Assembly: GCA_964413735.1 (NCBI GenBank)
Contig: CAYPSS010000003.1
Location: 106,626-170,625 of the forward strand
Reading direction: 5' to 3'
Length of the DNA stretch: 64,000 bases
Origin: an uncultured Gammaproteobacteria bacterium
GTDB lineage: Bacteria > Patescibacteriota > Patescibacteriia > UBA11705
Shown: positions 3,113 to 61,869 of the stretch, piece by piece
Numbering within the stretch: the first letter of the stretch is position 1
How the letters are laid out: each line of letters begins with the position of its first letter
Notes under the pieces: model-generated
Databases searched by the model: none
Told to the model about the DNA's origin: nothing
The model's input: only the letters and a program-made list of their open reading frames with translations
Made by a program: the position numbers and the translations under genes

Positions 3113-3721
3113 TTAAACAATATTAAACCAACTTAAAATTTCTAATATTGGTAACAAAACAATGATAATAATAATCACAATCAATATGCCCCAGCCCAAA
3201 ATGGTTAAACAAGTGGGGGCAACGACCATAATGATGCGTTTCATGATCATTTTTTTCACTGCTTTTTTGGCTTGTTCTTTGGCCATTTGAACGGCCATTT
3301 GCTTGGCATTTTCCATAGCATCTTCTTCATCTTCCGTTTCATCTATGACCGGCATTTCGTCTTCTTCATCATCTTCATCATCAGTATAACTTTCTTCGTC
3401 TTCAAAAGTTGGTTCACTGTCTGTTGTTTCCAATTGTTCGGCCATCATTTCGTTAAAAGTCGGAGGGGTCCCAATATTAGGTTGAGAAAATGGGGTTGGC
3501 GGTGAGCCATAGTTTGCTCCATAGGGAGTTTCCGGTTCCGGATTTGTTTGAGGGTAGTCGGCTGTTTCCGGTTCAGCAGGTTGTGGTGTTGATTGCGGTT
3601 TTTCTTGTGATTCCAAAAAATCTTCATAGTCTTGACCGTATGGAGTTTGATTGCTTTGAGGTGATACTGGTGGTGGTTGAGGATTTTGTCCGGTAGTATT
3701 GGAATTGTTATTATCCGGCAT
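3113..3721 (-). CDS. Low-complexity Pro/Gln/acidic protein with C-terminal TM helix (hypothetical)
   Basis: ORF with a Pro-rich N-terminus, a long acidic stretch (DDEDDEEDE) and a C-terminal hydrophobic helix (IIMVVAPTCLTILGWGILIVIIIIIVLLPILEIL). No recognisable family. Confidence 0.45.
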   Translation of the reverse strand: MPDNNNSNTTGQNPQPPPVSPQSNQTPYGQDYEDFLESQEKPQSTPQPAEPETADYPQTNPEPETPYGANYGSPPTPFSQPNIGTPPTFNEMMAEQLETTDSEPTFEDEESYTDDEDDEEDEMPVIDETEDEEDAMENAKQMAVQMAKEQAKKAVKKMIMKRIIMVVAPTCLTILGWGILIVIIIIIVLLPILEILSWFNIV

Positions 3722-7053: not shown

Positions 7054-7611
7054 TTAGAATTGAACATTAATATTTTGTTTTTCGTCTTGAGAAGCTTCGA
7101 AAAATTCATATTTCTTAAAGCCCAAGAAATTGGCGACCAAGTTGTTGGGGAAAATTTGAATTTTGGTATTAAAGTCACGAACATTGCCATTATAAAAACG
7201 ACGAGAAGCTTGGATTTTATTTTCCGTATCGGAAAGTTCGCCTTGTAATTGCAAGAAGTTTTGGTTAGCTTTGAGTTCCGGATAATTTTCCGCCAAAGCG
7301 AAAATTGATTTCAAGGTATTGCTCAAAGCGTTTTCCGCTTCGCCTTTGGCTTCAACTCCTTGAGTTTGCATGGCTTTGGTGCGTGCCTCGGTCACTTTTT
7401 CAAATGTTTCTTTTTCGTGTGAAGCATATCCTTTGACCGTGTTGACTAAATTGGGGATCAAGTCATAGCGTCGTTTGAGCTGAACATCAATATCGCTCCA
7501 TGCTTCATCGGTTCGATTTTTGAATTTGATCAAGCCGTTGTAAACGCCGATTAACCACAAAACGACGATTACCAATACGGCTAGAACAATGTAAAAAACA
7601 GTTGTTCCCAT
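7054..7611 (-). CDS. lemA: LemA family membrane protein
   Basis: N-terminal TM anchor followed by the conserved LemA core (YNGLIKFKNRTDEAWSDIDVQLKRRYDLIPNLV). Confidence 0.85.
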   Translation of the reverse strand: MGTTVFYIVLAVLVIVVLWLIGVYNGLIKFKNRTDEAWSDIDVQLKRRYDLIPNLVNTVKGYASHEKETFEKVTEARTKAMQTQGVEAKGEAENALSNTLKSIFALAENYPELKANQNFLQLQGELSDTENKIQASRRFYNGNVRDFNTKIQIFPNNLVANFLGFKKYEFFEASQDEKQNINVQF

Positions 7612-7766
7612 AAATTAAACTTATCTGCCCGCTTCAATCACTTTGAGGAGTGATTTTTTTGGTCAGATTATTATTTTTTATTTGAAACTCTTACTCATTT
7701 ATTGTATAGTATTGTAGTGATTTAGTAAAGTGAATAAATGGGTATTTTTATAAATAAATTAGCTTT

Positions 7767-11370: not shown

Positions 11371-11483
11371 CTTGCTTCGCCCGCATAGCGAGGCGAGCGC
11401 TGCTCAGCATGACAACATGATTGACGAATTGTTTTTTTTATGATAATTATTGGTTGGGAATTCTTCAAAAAAGGAGAGCGAAA

Positions 11484-11966
11484 ATGCGAGAAAATTTGAC
11501 TTTGATTATTGTAATTGTCGCAATTATTACCGCTTTCTTAACGCTGGCAGTACAGATTTTTTACGCGTGGTTACAACGAAAAGGTTTTTTACAAAAAGTT
11601 CGTTCGTTTGTTTATCAATCAAGTAATTCTTTTGCAGTTACATTGCCGGATATTTCTTGGTTGCAAATAACTTTGCGTTGGTATTTTGATGCGAAGTTTG
11701 TTTTAACGGAAACGGAAAGGGGACATTATAATAATTTGTTTTATCGGGCGATTGAAAAAGTTATTGTGCAAAATGAATGTTCAACAGATTTTTATCAATC
11801 AGAAGAATTTGTACTTTTATTGGTTAAGGCTTTGCAGGAATTGATAATTGATTCAACGAAAAAAAAATCTGTCTTTCAATTGGAAGTTACTTTGGAAAAA
11901 AACTGTCCAAGAATCCAGAGTGTAAGTTTGCGTCGAGTACTGTCCCCGGAAGATTTTGTGAATTGA
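11484..11966 (+). CDS. Hypothetical membrane-anchored protein
   Basis: SD aaggagag 6 nt before ATG 11484. N-terminal TM (LTLIIVIVAIITAFLTLAVQIFYAWL). No family recognised. Confidence 0.5.
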   Translation: MRENLTLIIVIVAIITAFLTLAVQIFYAWLQRKGFLQKVRSFVYQSSNSFAVTLPDISWLQITLRWYFDAKFVLTETERGHYNNLFYRAIEKVIVQNECSTDFYQSEEFVLLLVKALQELIIDSTKKKSVFQLEVTLEKNCPRIQSVSLRRVLSPEDFVN

Positions 11967-47186: not shown

Positions 47187-47215
47187 TTGACAAAATATTG
47201 TTAATATGTTATAAT
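47187..47215 (+). promoter_or_regulatory. Consensus sigma70 promoter (TTGACA-17-TATAAT) driving the GC-rich RNA element
   Basis: ttgaca at 47187-47192, 17-nt spacer, tataat at 47210-47215. Confidence 0.5.
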
Positions 47216-47221
47216 GTTCGC

Positions 47222-47597
47222 GCAGTATCCACATGGAAGTGGAATGTGTGTGTTTTCCTCGAACGTCGCTGGAGGGAGGCCGTGATCAGAGGTCCGCCGT
47301 AACCAAGCAATTGGTTACAGCCCAAAAGCAGTCTGGGCTTGATAATGCGACTGTTAGTTTTCGAGGCGCGGGGTCAGTTGGCCGAATTGGCGCCGGATTT
47401 AACTCGAGAACGACTGTTTATAACAATTTGGCAAGGAGGAAGGGTGACAACGTTGCTGGAACCGTGCTAAAAAGAAGGGTTAGCGACGGACCTGAGCCAA
47501 GTCGTCGTCGTAAATCAGGCCGCATTCGGGGGAGGAACGGTGAGAACGTGGCTGATGACGTATTAATTTGAACCAATGTCTGAGACATTGGTTTTTT
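47222..47597 (+). ncRNA. Candidate structured ncRNA (about 375 nt, GC-rich; class unresolved, RNase P RNA is one possibility)
   Basis: GC-rich block in an AT-rich genome between a consensus promoter and the terminator aaccaatgtctgagacattgg+tttttt. The embedded 112-aa ORF has no GC3 bias, rare AGG/AGA/CGA codons and a low-complexity basic product. Perfect 8-bp stem with GNRA loop (guaaccaa-GCAA-uugguuac). Nested helices ucgag[ggcgc..gcgcc]cucga. Hairpin agccca..ugggcu. Long-range complements cgucgcu/agcgacg and aggucccg-like agguccg/cggaccu. Confidence 0.5.
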
Positions 47598-47624
47598 CGT
47601 TTTAAAATTATTATTTTCAATAAC

Positions 47625-49731: not shown

Positions 49732-49878
49732 AAAATTTTATCATCAAATAATTAGATTTAGAATGCCTTTATTATAGCAAAAAAAAGTAATAATTCAATA
49801 TAACAATGTTGTTGACAAAAGATATGGGTTGTGATAAGTCTAAGATACTGTTCTTTGACTCTCCCACAAGGAGGATCT

Positions 49879-50577
49879 ATGATTTCGGATAAACAAGGTG
49901 AGAAATGGGTAAGAGATGTTTTGAAGAGAATGTCTATTGTTCGTCAAGATATTCATGATCAAGAAAAAACTTTAATCAGCAAAGTTGATGAAGCAAAAAT
50001 CAAATTTGAGAAAGCTTACCTTGCATTAGCAACGTTTATGGATAATATGACGGAAGAGCGTTGTTTGCAAGATGGTCAAAATATGACTGAGTTTATCGAT
50101 TTGTCTCAGGAAGCAACTTCGGCCGGTCAAGAATATGTGCAGGTAGTGGAAGAACTCGGTAAATCTTCCGGTCAGGTTGTGAAAGTAACTGAGGCAATGG
50201 AACATTTGGAAGGGGTGCGTGATTTTCTGGCTCAAGGTTTTCCTGAATATATGGCTGGAGTGCCGAAAACTGAAGAATTTGATTTTTCCAAATTTCGATT
50301 GATTGATTTTGTGATTTGTGCGGTAAAGGAAGGAAGTGATTGGCATACTCATTTTTATCTGCATGATATTTTGCCTGTTTTGCAAAGCTGGGGCATTCAT
50401 ACTTGGACAATTCATAAAGTTAGGGGAGTTTTGCGCCGTGAATGCAATCGACAATCTGATGCTTTTTGTTATTATGTATTGGACAGAGGAGAAGCTTGGG
50501 GATTAACTGAACATGGACGAAAACAATATAAGGTTAACTTGCAAGAATTGCATAGTCATTTGAAAAGCCAGGTTTAA
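49879..50577 (+). CDS. Hypothetical protein, paralog A (N-terminal coiled coil, C-terminal HSWG-containing domain)
   Basis: ATG 49879 preceded by aaggagg. Paralogous to 50688..51392 (shared QGEKW/QGKQW and LQSWGIHTWT/LHSWGLTHWT motifs). Confidence 0.55.
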   Translation: MISDKQGEKWVRDVLKRMSIVRQDIHDQEKTLISKVDEAKIKFEKAYLALATFMDNMTEERCLQDGQNMTEFIDLSQEATSAGQEYVQVVEELGKSSGQVVKVTEAMEHLEGVRDFLAQGFPEYMAGVPKTEEFDFSKFRLIDFVICAVKEGSDWHTHFYLHDILPVLQSWGIHTWTIHKVRGVLRRECNRQSDAFCYYVLDRGEAWGLTEHGRKQYKVNLQELHSHLKSQV

Positions 50578-50687
50578 TTGTAAGTGATCAAAATGATCAC
50601 TTTTTTTTATATTTAAAAATAGTTGACAAAAGATATTGTTTATGATAATTATAAGGGGATGTTCCTTAACTCCCACCAGGAGAGAGT

Positions 50688-51392
50688 ATGACAGAAGTTA
50701 TTTCCAATCAGCAAGGTAAGCAATGGTTAACGCAATTGCTCAAACGACTGGAATTGCGACGTGAACAATTGGATCGGAAAATCCAAGAATTGGTTAAGCA
50801 GTTGGAAGTTGCCGAAGAACATTATGAAAAAGACATTGCTGCTTTTTCGATTTTGAGTAATTCCCGTATGCGGATTGCCTCAGGTGAATTGAATCTGGAT
50901 GTAGTGCAAAATTGTATTACAGTTTCCGAGAACATTGTGAAAAACGGCCAGGCTTGTTTATCCATGCGTGAATCATATCGCACATTGATGAATGATTTCC
51001 AGCAGGTTGATGCGCAAATGGCCATGGCTCGGCAGTTGATGGAACAAGAATTTGATGCTCTGCCGGAGTTGCCACCAGAAGATAGTGCGCCAAAGAAGCA
51101 TCGATTGATTGATGAAGTATTGTGCGCTTTGGTGGCATTTCCTAAAAGTAAAGTTTCTATTGGTGGTGATCTATCTCAAATTCTTAAGGTTTTGCATAGT
51201 TGGGGGTTGACTCATTGGACACCGGAAAAGCTGGCCAAGGCCTTGGACAATCAGTTTAATCGAAAAACTGAAAAACTTCTTTATAAGGTTTATCGTGAAA
51301 ATAGAAATTATTGGAGTTTATCTGTACAAGGGATTCAATATTATCAAAGGAACTTGTGTGAGCTTCACCAGAAACTGCTTAATCAGCAATAA
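50688..51392 (+). CDS. Hypothetical protein, paralog B
   Basis: Same architecture and the same upstream promoter/leader motif as paralog A. Confidence 0.55.
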   Translation: MTEVISNQQGKQWLTQLLKRLELRREQLDRKIQELVKQLEVAEEHYEKDIAAFSILSNSRMRIASGELNLDVVQNCITVSENIVKNGQACLSMRESYRTLMNDFQQVDAQMAMARQLMEQEFDALPELPPEDSAPKKHRLIDEVLCALVAFPKSKVSIGGDLSQILKVLHSWGLTHWTPEKLAKALDNQFNRKTEKLLYKVYRENRNYWSLSVQGIQYYQRNLCELHQKLLNQQ

Positions 51393-51442
51393 TTAATACA
51401 AAACAGTGACCAACGGCCACTGTTTTTTGATATCATTAGACT

Positions 51443-53323
51443 TTATTCAAAATAAAAGAATTTTTCATTACTGTAGATACCGCATTCATCACCATGATTC
51501 AGACAAACGCGGAAATAATAAGTTTGTCCGGGTGTTAAATCTGTCCACAAATAAGAAGTATCAGTTTCTGTAGTTAGCAATCGAAATTCAGCGGTCGGGA
51601 AGGTTGGCTTGGGATCAGTGGACATTAATAATTTATAGCCTTTGGGTGCGGTGGTATTGGCAATCGACCAATTAAGATTAATAGCCTCGCCATTAATTTG
51701 TCCGTTCAAAGTAATTATGCCGGTTTGTTGTTCTTCCGTGGGAATGGTAATTGATAAATTATTACTGTAAAGCAAACATTCGTTATTTTGATAGGCACAA
51801 ACTCGGAAATGATAAGTCCCGGGATCTAATTCTTTCCACAAATGATTAAATTGATTTTTGGCCACCGTGTGGGCTGAGCTTTGCGGGAAGGTGGGATTGG
51901 GCGATTCGTTGATTACTATTTTGAATTCATTTATTTCATTATTGGTATATTGCCAATCAAGATTGACTTCACCGGCCACAACTTTACCGGTTAATACCAT
52001 TTTGTCGTCTTTGGGGTTGCCGATAATAATGGATTTTTCTTCACTGGTATATAGACATTTGCTTTCTCCTAAAATACAAACTTTTATATAATATTTTTTG
52101 TTATTTTCCACTTCAATGGAGGTGGCGGTATCGGTGGTCAGAGCATCAACCGATGAGGTGCCGGTCAGAGAAGTAAGTGGTGTGGTGGCATAATAAATTC
52201 GGAAGCCTTTGACATTTTCCATTTCGGTATTACTTTTCCAAGTAACGGAAATTTTATTTTCCTGTGAAGTGAGATTTACATCAAGGGGTGATTGAGCTTG
52301 ATCAAATTTCACATAAATGATTTGCTTGTTTAATTTGCTACCCAGTTTAACGGTAATTTCAATTTGATTATCGCCGGTAGTGAGTAAATAAGGATATTCA
52401 AATTGTCCGGCGTTGTTTTTTACTTCCTTTCCGCTAATATATATTTCCGCTTGGGGATCAGTTGTGCCTTTGATGATTAAATTTTCCAAATTAGTGGTAA
52501 AATCGTTTTTTTGCGGTTCTAAAATTTTCAGTTCAACATTGGCCTCATATAATCCCATGATCAAACCAGCGGTTTCGTCTTGTTCTTTGTTCCAAACCAA
52601 CCACGAATTTGCCAGAAAATCCGTAATTTGTTTTTTTTCTGAGGTGATCATTTCAGTTGTGGGTTTACTCAAATCAATTGTGGCGATTTCACTTTGTTCA
52701 ATGGTGCGCATATTGATAATGTTGTCACTTCCGGGGGCGTCAAAAATTTTAACTTTAATTCGGCTTTCAATTACCGCCAAAGAAATTTGGTTATTTTGTA
52801 TGCCGGTATTAAATCCGGTTCCCAGGGCGGTGAATTCCACTTGGTTGATTTTGACACGATAAATAGCCGGACTGGAGTCATTGATGCGATGATAAATATT
52901 GCCTGATTTTTGTTCAATAATTATTTCACCGGGAGAAAATTTTTCAAAGTAGACTTCGGTGTTTTGATCCATACGCAGTAAGCTGTTATCCGGTAATTGG
53001 ACTATTGCCTTGCTATCCTTTTCGGTTTTAATGGTATCACCGGTAGTGATTTTTTGATTGGATTCCAGTAATGCCCATTCATCTTTTTTTATCCATAATG
53101 AACCTTTGACAAAAGTAATGGTGCCGGCCTCAAAAGTATTTTTTTGTTCCAGGTCTTGTAATGATTCGGTTGGTTTTTCCGGGGCGGTGACAATTGCCCA
53201 AATCACAAAGCCGATTAAACCGATCAAGATGGCTGACAAAAACAAAAAACCCGATGATTTGTAGAATGGTTGTTTGTAAAAATTTTTGTTTTGTCGGGAA
53301 TTAAATGACGAGTATACTTGCAT
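51443..53323 (-). CDS. Membrane-anchored FecR-like domain protein with three fibronectin-III-like repeats
   Basis: N-terminal TM. FecR-like segment (GDTIKTEKDSKAIVQLPDNSLLRMDQNTEV). Three repeats each ending in a (Y/F)xFRVC...EC-type pattern. Confidence 0.55.
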   Translation of the reverse strand: MQVYSSFNSRQNKNFYKQPFYKSSGFLFLSAILIGLIGFVIWAIVTAPEKPTESLQDLEQKNTFEAGTITFVKGSLWIKKDEWALLESNQKITTGDTIKTEKDSKAIVQLPDNSLLRMDQNTEVYFEKFSPGEIIIEQKSGNIYHRINDSSPAIYRVKINQVEFTALGTGFNTGIQNNQISLAVIESRIKVKIFDAPGSDNIINMRTIEQSEIATIDLSKPTTEMITSEKKQITDFLANSWLVWNKEQDETAGLIMGLYEANVELKILEPQKNDFTTNLENLIIKGTTDPQAEIYISGKEVKNNAGQFEYPYLLTTGDNQIEITVKLGSKLNKQIIYVKFDQAQSPLDVNLTSQENKISVTWKSNTEMENVKGFRIYYATTPLTSLTGTSSVDALTTDTATSIEVENNKKYYIKVCILGESKCLYTSEEKSIIIGNPKDDKMVLTGKVVAGEVNLDWQYTNNEINEFKIVINESPNPTFPQSSAHTVAKNQFNHLWKELDPGTYHFRVCAYQNNECLLYSNNLSITIPTEEQQTGIITLNGQINGEAINLNWSIANTTAPKGYKLLMSTDPKPTFPTAEFRLLTTETDTSYLWTDLTPGQTYYFRVCLNHGDECGIYSNEKFFYFE

Positions 53324-56369: not shown

Positions 56370-56438
56370 TTGATAAAAAATGGTAGATGTGTTAATTTTT
56401 GATGTCTGGTTCTTTGACTCCCCAATAAGGAGGGTAGT

Positions 56439-57470
56439 ATGGGTTGGTGGATTTTTGGCAAAAAGGAATCTGAGGCTTTACCGGTTCGCGAAAAAATGAG
56501 TGCGGAAGAAAGAAAATTTCGTGAATTTGGTCAATGGCAAAGACTTTTGAAGGCGACTATTGGAAATTGTTTTAATTTTGAAAGTCCAAAAATTAATCAA
56601 TATTCATTAGAAGCAAAATATCTGAATAATTTGTTCCAAGAGGGACAGTTGCCAATGAGTTTTCCGGAGTTAGTTTTGCAGGAATTTAAGATCAGGATGC
56701 GTTATATTAACTTGAATCAAGTAAGATCTGAGAGAATTGATTTTGCTCAAGAAATTCAACTTTGTCGGGAAAATCTGAAAACTCTCTTGGGTTTTAATGA
56801 TGATCAAGTGAATGAAGTTATCCGGGAAATAATGCAAGACTATTTCAATAAACAAGAATTTGTGTTTGTTTATTACTTGCATTTTGATCATCGGGTATCT
56901 TTGGATGAACAATCAATGTCTTTAATGTATTGCCGAGTTTATGAACATTTTGTGATGCGTGGTGATTTAGCGCAAGTTGAAAAAATGAGAGAATCCGGCA
57001 TGGTTGATCAGGTGATTCAAAACAATAATCGTGCTACTTTGATTCTGCAAATTTTTCGACAGTTACACAGAATGCAATTACAATATGAGTCGCCGACCAT
57101 CTTTCAAAAGCATGAATTTTTCCGTAGTTCGATGGTTCAGTTAAAGGAATTGTTTGTTGAAGCAACTAAAGAGGGTTATTTGGATTTACGAGGCTTACTT
57201 TTGGCTTTGATGGCAGGTCAAGTGGATTGTTTGCCGGTGGTCGAGAATTTGGATGCTGGGTATCAAGAAAAAATTCCCAAGGAAATGTGGCCTCAATTGG
57301 CGCTGCTTCATTGTCAGGTTTTGGCTTGGTCAAAATTTGCTGAAAGGGCTGATTATATTCGTGAAATTGAACGAACAATCAAGCAATATGAAATTAAAGA
57401 AGCGTTTCGTTCTTGGTATCGTCAAGGGCCGGAAATTTATTTGAACCCGGTATTATTATACCGTTTATAA
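56439..57470 (+). CDS. Hypothetical soluble protein carrying the same leader motif as 49879/50688
   Basis: 343-aa ORF preceded by ttctttgactccccaataaggagg. Confidence 0.5.
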   Translation: MGWWIFGKKESEALPVREKMSAEERKFREFGQWQRLLKATIGNCFNFESPKINQYSLEAKYLNNLFQEGQLPMSFPELVLQEFKIRMRYINLNQVRSERIDFAQEIQLCRENLKTLLGFNDDQVNEVIREIMQDYFNKQEFVFVYYLHFDHRVSLDEQSMSLMYCRVYEHFVMRGDLAQVEKMRESGMVDQVIQNNNRATLILQIFRQLHRMQLQYESPTIFQKHEFFRSSMVQLKELFVEATKEGYLDLRGLLLALMAGQVDCLPVVENLDAGYQEKIPKEMWPQLALLHCQVLAWSKFAERADYIREIERTIKQYEIKEAFRSWYRQGPEIYLNPVLLYRL

Positions 57471-57478
57471 TTAATTAG

Positions 57479-57505
57479 ATTCACTCAAAAGAGTGGATTT
57501 TTTTT
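57479..57505 (+). terminator. Rho-independent terminator
   Basis: attcactc-aaaa-gagtggat followed by a T7 run. Confidence 0.45.
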
Positions 57506-60948: not shown

Positions 60949-61251
60949 ATGAACATCAACATCAAAAGTGCGAATATGGATTTGACGGAGGCGATTAAAA
61001 ATTATGTCATGGAAAAGCTGGGTTCAATCGATCGTTATTTTGATAATATTCAAAACATTGATGTGGAAGTGGGGAAAACCACTCGCGGACAACAAAAGGG
61101 CGATGTTTTCTTTTGTGAAATAAATGTGGCTGTGCCGCGAACATTACTACGTTATCGTGAGGAAACCGATGATTTGTATAAGGCGATTAATAATGTGAAA
61201 AAAGGGATTCAATTGGAATTAAATAAATACAAAGAAAAATTAAGAGCTTAA
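60949..61251 (+). CDS. hpf: Ribosome hibernation promoting factor (S30AE/RaiA family)
   Basis: MNINIKSANMDLTEAIKNYVMEKLG. 100 aa. Confidence 0.8.
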   Translation: MNINIKSANMDLTEAIKNYVMEKLGSIDRYFDNIQNIDVEVGKTTRGQQKGDVFFCEINVAVPRTLLRYREETDDLYKAINNVKKGIQLELNKYKEKLRA

Positions 61252-61254
61252 ATT

Positions 61255-61869
61255 ATGTATTATCGCACTATTGCTCGTTCCATTTTGAATTTCAAAATCA
61301 ATCCCATCATTAAGATTCTAATTCTTTCAGACTTTGTAGTTTTGAGTGCTTCGAATTTATGTGGTCCGATTTTTGCTCTGTTTATAGTTGAGAGGATTTC
61401 GGGGGCTGGCTTAGAAGTGGTGGGCATTGCTTCGATGATTTATTTTATTTTTAAAGCTTTGTTTGAAGTGCCGGTTGGAATTTTTATCGATCGGACAAAA
61501 GCAGAAAAAGACGATCTCTATACAGCGTTATTTGGTACTATTTTAACAGCGGGGGTTTATTTTTTATTTTCTTACATAAACACAGTTTGGGAATTGTATT
61601 TATTACATGCTTTGCTCGGAATTGGTGCTGCGGTGGCATTTCCTGGTTGGTATTCAATATTTACGCACCATATTGATAAAGAAAAAGAAGCTTTTGAATG
61701 GAGTGTATATGATGTGATGATTGGAATTGGAGCTGCCGGTGCCTCGGCCATTGGTGCCTTGATAGCTGATTTATATGGTTATAATGCACTTTTTTTCATT
61801 GTATCTGGATTTACAGGTTTTGGTGCCTTATTGCTGTTTATTATTAGGAAAAAGGTTCATCAATCTTAA
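61255..61869 (+). CDS. Hypothetical six-TM membrane protein
   Basis: 204 aa, hydrophobic helices throughout. No family recognised. Confidence 0.5.
   Translation: MYYRTIARSILNFKINPIIKILILSDFVVLSASNLCGPIFALFIVERISGAGLEVVGIASMIYFIFKALFEVPVGIFIDRTKAEKDDLYTALFGTILTAGVYFLFSYINTVWELYLLHALLGIGAAVAFPGWYSIFTHHIDKEKEAFEWSVYDVMIGIGAAGASAIGALIADLYGYNALFFIVSGFTGFGALLLFIIRKKVHQS

Follow-up and report, generated by a model that had tools for sequence, protein, structure and literature searches.

A lineage-specific promoter and leader cassette shared by three orphan genes and its possible role in translational control

In a 64-kb stretch of DNA from an uncultivated bacterium (the whole of which is called the window below), two neighbouring genes carry similar promoters and leaders, and the same leader motif recurs in front of a third gene. 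A first-pass annotation took the neighbours for a duplicated pair with a duplicated promoter and proposed that the leader is a common control element. The locus raises the question whether the leader is such an element and at which level it acts, or whether the motif is randomly placed or simply the generic Shine–Dalgarno (SD) context of the lineage. Gene 1 (49879..50577, plus strand) encodes a 232-aa orphan and gene 2 (50688..51392, plus strand) its 234-aa paralog. BLASTP aligned residues 1–231 of the two proteins at 27% identity (E 8e-21), which confirms the proposed paralogy, and the two genes are adjacent on the same strand, as is characteristic of a tandem duplication. The coiled coils claimed for the N-termini are borne out by AlphaFold as a predicted helical hairpin (residues 4–55 and 67–118; mean pLDDT 74.5), and the C-terminal motifs LQSWGIHTWT and LHSWGLTHWT are present. 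Gene 3 (56439..57470, plus strand) encodes a 343-aa all-alpha orphan, for which no homology to genes 1 and 2 was found, in agreement with the annotation. Beyond what had been claimed, gene 3 shares the promoter as well, the three genes are among the very few SD-led genes of the window, and all three are strain-hypervariable orphans.

There are exactly three copies of the 12-mer GTTCYTTRACTC on the two strands of the 64 kb, 29, 27 and 30 nt ahead of the ATG of the genes at 49879, 50688 and 56439, on the coding strand in all three cases; the chance expectation is ~0.03 (128,000 positions x 4^-10 x 2^-2). All three copies stand before genes and none elsewhere, and the motif is thus not randomly scattered in the window. 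The promoter pattern TTGAYA-N14-TGNTAA likewise has three sites in the window, those of the three genes, where 0.27 are expected, and 0 of 100 shuffles reached three. The promoters of genes 1 and 2 share TTGACAAAAGATAT exactly, at 49812 and 50623, and alignment of the three upstream regions revealed that gene 3 has the whole promoter, besides the leader, in common with them. The gene 1 promoter (49812..49839, plus strand), a match to the pattern, consists of TTGACA (49812–49817), a 12-nt spacer and the extended −10 element TGTGATAAGT (49830–49839). In the gene 2 promoter (50623..50650, plus strand), TTGACA (50623–50628) is followed by the extended −10 element TATGATAAT, and in that of gene 3 (56370..56398, plus strand), TTGATA (56370–56375) is followed by TGTGTTAAT.

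The leaders are GTTCTTTGACTCTCCCACAAGGAGGATCTATG at 49850, GTTCCTTAACTCCCACCAGGAGAGAGTATG at 50661 and GTTCTTTGACTCCCCAATAAGGAGGGTAGTATG at 56409; those of genes 1 and 2 have the form GTTCYTTRACTCYC...AGGAG, and the leader ahead of 56439–57470 is of the same type. The gene 1 leader (49850..49878, plus strand) contains the 14-nt box GTTCTTTGACTCTC (49850–49863), the anti-SD sequence CTCC (49861–49864) and the SD sequence AAGGAGG (49868–49874). The gene 2 leader (50661..50687, plus strand) contains the box variant GTTCCTTAACTCCC (50661–50674), CTCC (50670–50673) and the SD sequence AGGAGAG (50678–50684), and the gene 3 leader (56409..56438, plus strand) contains the box GTTCTTTGACTCCC (56409–56422), CTCC (56418–56421) and the SD sequence AAGGAGG (56427–56433). 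A terminator-like hairpin with a T run follows gene 1 (50582..50602, plus strand), which makes gene 1 monocistronic, and another follows gene 3 (57477..57500, plus strand). The hairpin after gene 2 (51400..51426) is common to this gene and a convergent FecR-like gene; the scan assigned it to the minus strand, and a T run is also present on the plus strand. Since each gene is followed by its own terminator-like hairpin, each forms a transcription unit of its own, and the three units have a single promoter and leader type in common.

We built a profile HMM of the cassette from the three window sites and their orthologues. The three sites were recovered at E 2e-20 to 4e-16, scores that are high by construction because the model was built from these very sites and their orthologues; the informative outcome is that the next best match, antisense within a CDS, had an E value of 0.28. 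The promoter–leader element is real, non-random and new. We file it as a new lineage-specific example among cis-regulatory promoter and leader motifs that several genes share, and it probably marks the three genes as a small co-controlled set.

To count SD sequences, the first ATG of 58 non-overlapping long ORFs in the window was taken and positions −20 to −3 were examined. An SD-like 4–5-mer of any kind was found at 7/58 starts and a strong, well-placed one at only four, so the motif is not a generic SD context. These four are the starts of genes 1, 2 and 3 and of an orphan at 11484, and the typical start in the window is an A/T-rich sequence without an SD, such as aaaatattATG. Judging from these starts, the source genome appears to be largely SD-independent. 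At L189, a distant syntenic locus, the housekeeping genes have no SD and three orphans have a strong one (AAGGAGAG, AGGGAGG or GGAGG); two of these, including a homologue of genes 1 and 2 (P0014), lie between the SHMT gene and a FecR-like gene, and the third (318–785) lies elsewhere on the contig. The paucity of SD sequences in the window, together with the pattern at L189, indicates that the three genes are exceptions in an SD-poor genome. The SD-led orphans gave no match in Pfam, PHROG, PADLOC or PDB.

The fourth SD-led orphan of the window (11421–11966, plus strand) has 160 aa and, at its N-terminus, a hydrophobic segment. The promoter in front of it, TTGACG-N14-TGATAATTAT, closely resembles the gene 2 promoter, and a partial box, ATTCTTCAA, is present without CUCC. 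It was rejected as a fourth member of the set, since its E value with the cassette HMM was 1.6 and thus not significant. At L189, the leader of a 277-aa orphan (7570–7708) has two direct copies of a 14-nt sequence, ATTATTGTTCCTTT, one at 7606, directly after the promoter, and one at 7660. Downstream of the copy at 7606 come AAGGAGAGAGAAGTG and an upstream ORF of 27 codons, which overlaps the main ATG in another frame. The link of the L189 leader to the box is weak, because the 8-mer TGTTCYTT occurs 10 times in 13.6 kb. Neither gene 3 nor the 277-aa protein showed homology to genes 1 and 2 or to each other.

The cassette is composed of a sigma-70-type promoter (TTGACA-N14-TGnTAA), ~8–10 variable bases in which the transcript would begin, the 14-nt box GUUCYUURACUCYC, a short variable loop and a strong SD sequence AGGAG(G) 4–7 nt ahead of ATG. 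The box always lies on the sense strand at a near-fixed distance to the SD. As read from the sequence, it is non-palindromic and has neither dyad nor direct-repeat symmetry. Transcription should start 1–5 nt upstream of the box, judging from the position of the −10 element (predicted at 49845–49849, 50656–50660 and 56404–56408 for genes 1, 2 and 3), which would place the box at the extreme 5′ end of a ~30-nt leader. Two other readings of the box were considered and found unlikely. A second promoter within it (TTGACT-17-TATGAT) would have a spacing of 15–18 that is not conserved, and an upstream in-frame peptide across it would be in a different frame in gene 3 and would start inside the −10 element.

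In all variants of the box, its 3′ CUCC is predicted to be able to pair with GGAG within the SD. The first-pass annotation had asked whether the motif sequesters the SD; folding predicted the CUCC/GGAG pairing in all three leaders, but the hairpins are of only 4–5 bp and −5 to −6.3 kcal/mol, with z between −0.8 and +0.8, so that their stability is at the level of shuffled sequences. The most conserved part of the box, GUUCYUUR, lies outside the stem. The leaders loosely resemble SD-sequestering leaders and RNA thermometers (ROSE, fourU) in their short 5′ UTR and in a pyrimidine CUCC pairable with the SD, and differ from them in the short stem of shuffled stability and in the position of GUUCYUUR outside it, as well as in the lack of an Rfam match. 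The whole window contained no match to an Rfam family at the gathering threshold, and the leaders gave only noise (E 0.7–7) in a search to E <= 10. No tRNA, tmRNA, rRNA or Rfam-recognisable RNA was found in the 64 kb.

A search of the window for a partner of the box gave no RNA-binding protein, no sRNA and no complementary sequence, and the reverse complement of the box occurs elsewhere in the window only at chance level. A candidate for an undescribed ncRNA lies at 47188–47598 (plus strand). Its strong TTGACA-17-TATAAT promoter leads into ~375 nt of GC-rich sequence (50% GC vs 33–40% in the background) with a terminator hairpin at the end (47571–47598), and the 112-aa 'ORF' contained in it looks like a translated structured RNA. 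The predicted folding energy of this region, −130 kcal/mol (z −2.7), was reached by none of 100 shuffles. It has an internal repeat with AGGAGGAA...GGTGA.AACGT.GCTG, the contigs L001 and L066 conserve it and L189 conserves its promoter (3466–3500); Rfam gave no match to it even at E <= 1. Pairing of the leaders with this candidate ncRNA (47222–47598) was worse than that of shuffled leaders. Of the proposed common control element, it thus stands that it is real, non-random and kept by selection, as described below, whereas the anti-SD hairpin is no better than shuffled and no binding partner came to light in the window.

Tentatively, and with a little less than even confidence, we read the box as an mRNA-level element through which SD-dependent initiation is coupled with a weak anti-SD hairpin and probably with a box-specific partner. 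A lineage-specific promoter and 5′-UTR cassette would then stand before three separate one-gene transcription units, and the box in the mRNA would serve as a common translational control and stability element at the 5′ end of the ~30-nt leader, beside one of the very few real SDs of the genome. Box and SD together would make expression of the three genes dependent on SD-directed initiation, which the weak hairpin, and probably also a sequence-specific partner of the box, would modulate. Action at the RNA level, the transcription start and the existence of a partner are what we infer here; the mRNA-level reading is favoured because the box, conserved at every base, is no palindrome, keeps to one strand and is tied to the SD. 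It is supported by the three exact strand- and position-specific copies, the SD-poor background, the strong SDs of the L189 orphans, the constraint on the leaders across species with its stable box variants and confined changes, and the retention of the pairing in another species (L004). Against it stand the shuffled-level stability of the hairpins, for which compensatory changes are impossible since the SD is fixed, the lack of an Rfam match or of a partner in the window, the predicted position of the box at +3 to +16, which would equally suit a repressor operator, and the small sample of ~8 leader sequences from two lineages.

Among known translational operators, the leaders were compared with those of the CsrA/RsmA type (B. 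subtilis hag). The resemblance is loose. A site overlapping the SD is common to both in the case of gene 1, where an ACAAGGA-like sequence resembles what we take to be the CsrA consensus, whereas genes 2 and 3 fit this consensus less well. Each window leader has a single GGAGG or GGAGAG region, in contrast to the two separated GGA sites of the CsrA/RsmA type. No csrA was detected by tblastn in the 64-kb window, which is only part of the genome.

An unlikely but credible alternative is that the box is a DNA operator, bound at roughly +3 to +16 by a transcription factor that would jointly repress or activate the three promoters, which would then form a transcriptional regulon. Positions +3 to +16 relative to the transcription start are the classical place of a repressor operator, and the site right after the promoter is typical in this sense. 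The promoter is also shared and unusual for the window, and conservation of every base in the 12–14-nt box fits sequence-specific recognition. On the other hand, the box has no dyad or direct-repeat symmetry, its spacing to the SD and the ATG is as constant as that to the −10 element, and no regulator gene is evident beside the loci. LexA, CtsR and HrcA operator regulons likewise have the same short sequence at the same place downstream of the −10 element in several promoters; the window site differs from them in being asymmetric, strand-specific and tied to the SD, and by eye it does not fit the LexA/Cheo, CtsR, CIRCE or Fur boxes.

The age and constraint of the leader were judged from orthologous contigs. 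L001–L003, L066 and L067 belong to the same species as the window (98–99.7% nucleotide identity in glyA, folD, a methyltransferase gene and murC), and leader identity in them is uninformative on selection because the backbone itself is 98–99.7% identical. The informative comparison is that of the window with L004, in which the gene 1 protein is only 32% identical and synonymous sites are saturated (dS 1.25). The alignment of orthologous leaders suggested by the annotation gave 30/33 nt (91%) for gene 1 and 26/31 (84%) for gene 2 despite this saturation, and the stretch from the −35 element to the box, which holds the promoter spacers, is 63–65% identical in both genes. An alignment of eight sequences showed the −35 element, T-TG-TAA of the −10 region, GTTC-TT-ACTC-C, GAG and TATG as invariant blocks; changes are confined to the 8–10 nt between the −10 element and the box, the hairpin loop and the SD–ATG spacer. 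In gene 2 of L004, a C-to-U change retains the pairing, as CUCUC/GAGAG or as a G–U wobble. The ~8 distinct leader sequences come from two species-level lineages with the cassette, and in both species genes 1 and 3 have the TTTG variant of the box (GTTCTTTGACTC) and gene 2 the CTTA variant (GTTCCTTAACTC), indicating that the conservation is old and not the result of recent gene conversion. The comparison shows the leader to be under purifying selection.

These comparisons bear on another alternative, namely that one strong unit of promoter and ribosome-binding site was multiplied when genes 1 and 2 arose by tandem duplication, was captured in front of gene 3, and is kept merely for high SD-driven expression without dedicated regulation. 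We regard this alternative as rather improbable. As would be expected from common descent, the whole ~85-nt cassette is alignable among the three genes, part of the −35/−10 spacer included; the promoters of genes 1 and 2 in the window are more alike than that of gene 1 and its L004 orthologue, and the three units are monocistronic with their own terminators. However, a neutral or expression-optimising sequence would not hold a 14-nt non-SD box at 84–91% identity at dS > 1 next to a spacer at 63–65%, and the two box variants, which are distinct in both species, argue against ongoing homogenisation.

The proteins themselves evolve fast between strains. The window and L066, from the same species, are 98–100% identical per 100 nt in the backbone and only 50–84% identical in hypervariable islands at 50300–52300, 56900–57500 and 61200–61600. 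The islands take in the C-terminal part of gene 1 (~50300–50600), gene 2 from ~50900 onward and the C-terminal half of gene 3 (~56900–57500). They also include the C-terminal extracellular part of a FecR/fn3-like protein beside genes 1 and 2 (51443–53323) and part of a 204-aa protein at 61255 (PHROG 2034, E 3e-16). Taken region by region, identity in these stretches falls to 60–80%. In the variable halves dS is 0.4–1.2 vs 0.03–0.05 in the backbone (10–30 fold) at dN/dS 0.28–0.64, a pattern that indicates mosaics from allelic replacement by recombination. The promoters and leaders are fixed between strains. The N-terminal halves of genes 1 and 3 have 91–98% amino-acid identity to L066; in gene 2 only the first ~70 codons are fixed, and the N-terminal half as a whole is 86% identical.

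The gene 1/2 pair is present in L001–L004 and L066, and a profile search run exhaustively over 1.84 billion representative proteins yielded a tiny family of three close clusters and one distant relative. The latter, P0014, has 418 aa with two copies of the C-terminal domain and lies at the same syntenic position in L189 (RecR-YbaB-DnaB ... FolD-SHMT-[orphan]-[P0014]-FecR-like). Defence, phage and domain libraries as well as PDB sequence and fold searches gave no informative match, and by these searches the three proteins are lineage-restricted orphans. In the AlphaFold model, the C-terminal domain of genes 1 and 2 has a predicted winged-helix topology, alpha1-beta1-alpha2-alpha3-beta2-beta3 (H141–152, E159–160, H161–170, H178–187, E197–201, E206–209; pLDDT ~70–82). 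No sequence, profile or fold match of this domain to a known family was found; weak matches to 3na7 and 4ilo were obtained, and the overall architecture of the protein is loosely like that of HP0958-type proteins, in which a coiled coil is combined with nucleic-acid binding.

It is very improbable that the products of genes 1 and 2 bind the box DNA or RNA and so control their own genes and gene 3. The predicted topology is typical of winged-helix nucleic-acid binders, and the HP0958-like architecture with its weak matches points the same way, but neither sequence nor profile searches matched the proteins to a DNA-binding family, and the confidence of the model is moderate. Moreover, the winged-helix-like domain has only 62–79% nucleotide identity between strains in which the box is identical; since the domain varies and the box does not, it is unlikely to be the reader of the box.

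Public collections were scanned with the pattern GTTCYTTRACTCYC-N2-7-AGGAG. The GTDB representative genomes gave 61 matches, which were scattered single ones in unrelated phyla, JGI metagenomes at least 120, with only scattered single ones among the matches listed, and IMG/VR five; no further family member was among the matches listed. Two Patescibacteria contigs, L046 and L055, have a similar promoter–box–SD layout but ahead of unrelated genes, and they were treated as chance. In L006 and L013 (Spirochaetes MAGs), and in L018 and L023 (uncultured bacterium, Planctomycetota), chance matches fall within longer stretches, for example ...GTTCCTTGACTCTCCCCTTGGAGGAGgctctagcctcgtg..., each of which two unrelated contigs share in conserved form; these may be structured RNAs or repeats in their own right. 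Although such scattered matches show that the pattern can arise by chance, we give a negligible probability to chance or a generic ribosome-binding context as the origin of the cassette, which three copies against the ~0.03 expected, all in the same position before genes among which most others have no SD, refute for the window.

For the mRNA-level reading favoured here, the nearest logic is, by analogy, that of rpsU in Bacteroidia. According to three papers (PMC9976891, PMC7797042, PMC13000453), Bacteroidia ribosomes are SD-blind, with bS21, bS18 and bS6 sequestering the anti-SD, and rpsU is the one strongly SD-led gene, regulated by ribosome composition. The likeness lies in a genome almost without SDs and with a few extended-SD exceptions, whose translation would thereby hinge on the state of the anti-SD in the ribosome; the paucity of SDs is seen both in the window (7/58) and at L189; the difference is that the SD-led genes of the window are orphans, not rpsU, and that they have an extra conserved 5′ box. 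No bS21 was found in the 64 kb by tblastn with E. coli bS21. The window promoters are of the classical TTGACA/TATAAT type, and we take this type not to be Bacteroidia-like.

A bolder interpretation, which we consider quite doubtful, is that the three leaders form a specialised-translation regulon, in which a handful of fast-evolving orphans alone have a true SD in an SD-poor lineage that, judged from its promoters, does not look like Bacteroidia. The sequence-specific box and the anti-SD would make expression of these orphans follow the accessibility of the anti-SD on the ribosome, or else an RNA-binding factor dedicated to them, and would thus amount to a ribosome-state switch for strain-variable and possibly conflict-related genes. 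To our knowledge, the logic of SD-led exception genes has so far been worked out only for rpsU in Bacteroidia. If the cassette is merely an inherited expression unit, the finding is ordinary. If the box is a translational operator, it would be a second, independent case of that logic in an SD-independent genome, it would offer a compact and well-defined entry point to gene regulation in an uncultivated lineage that is poor in SDs and has no known regulatory element, and it would link three strain-hypervariable orphan proteins as one functional module.
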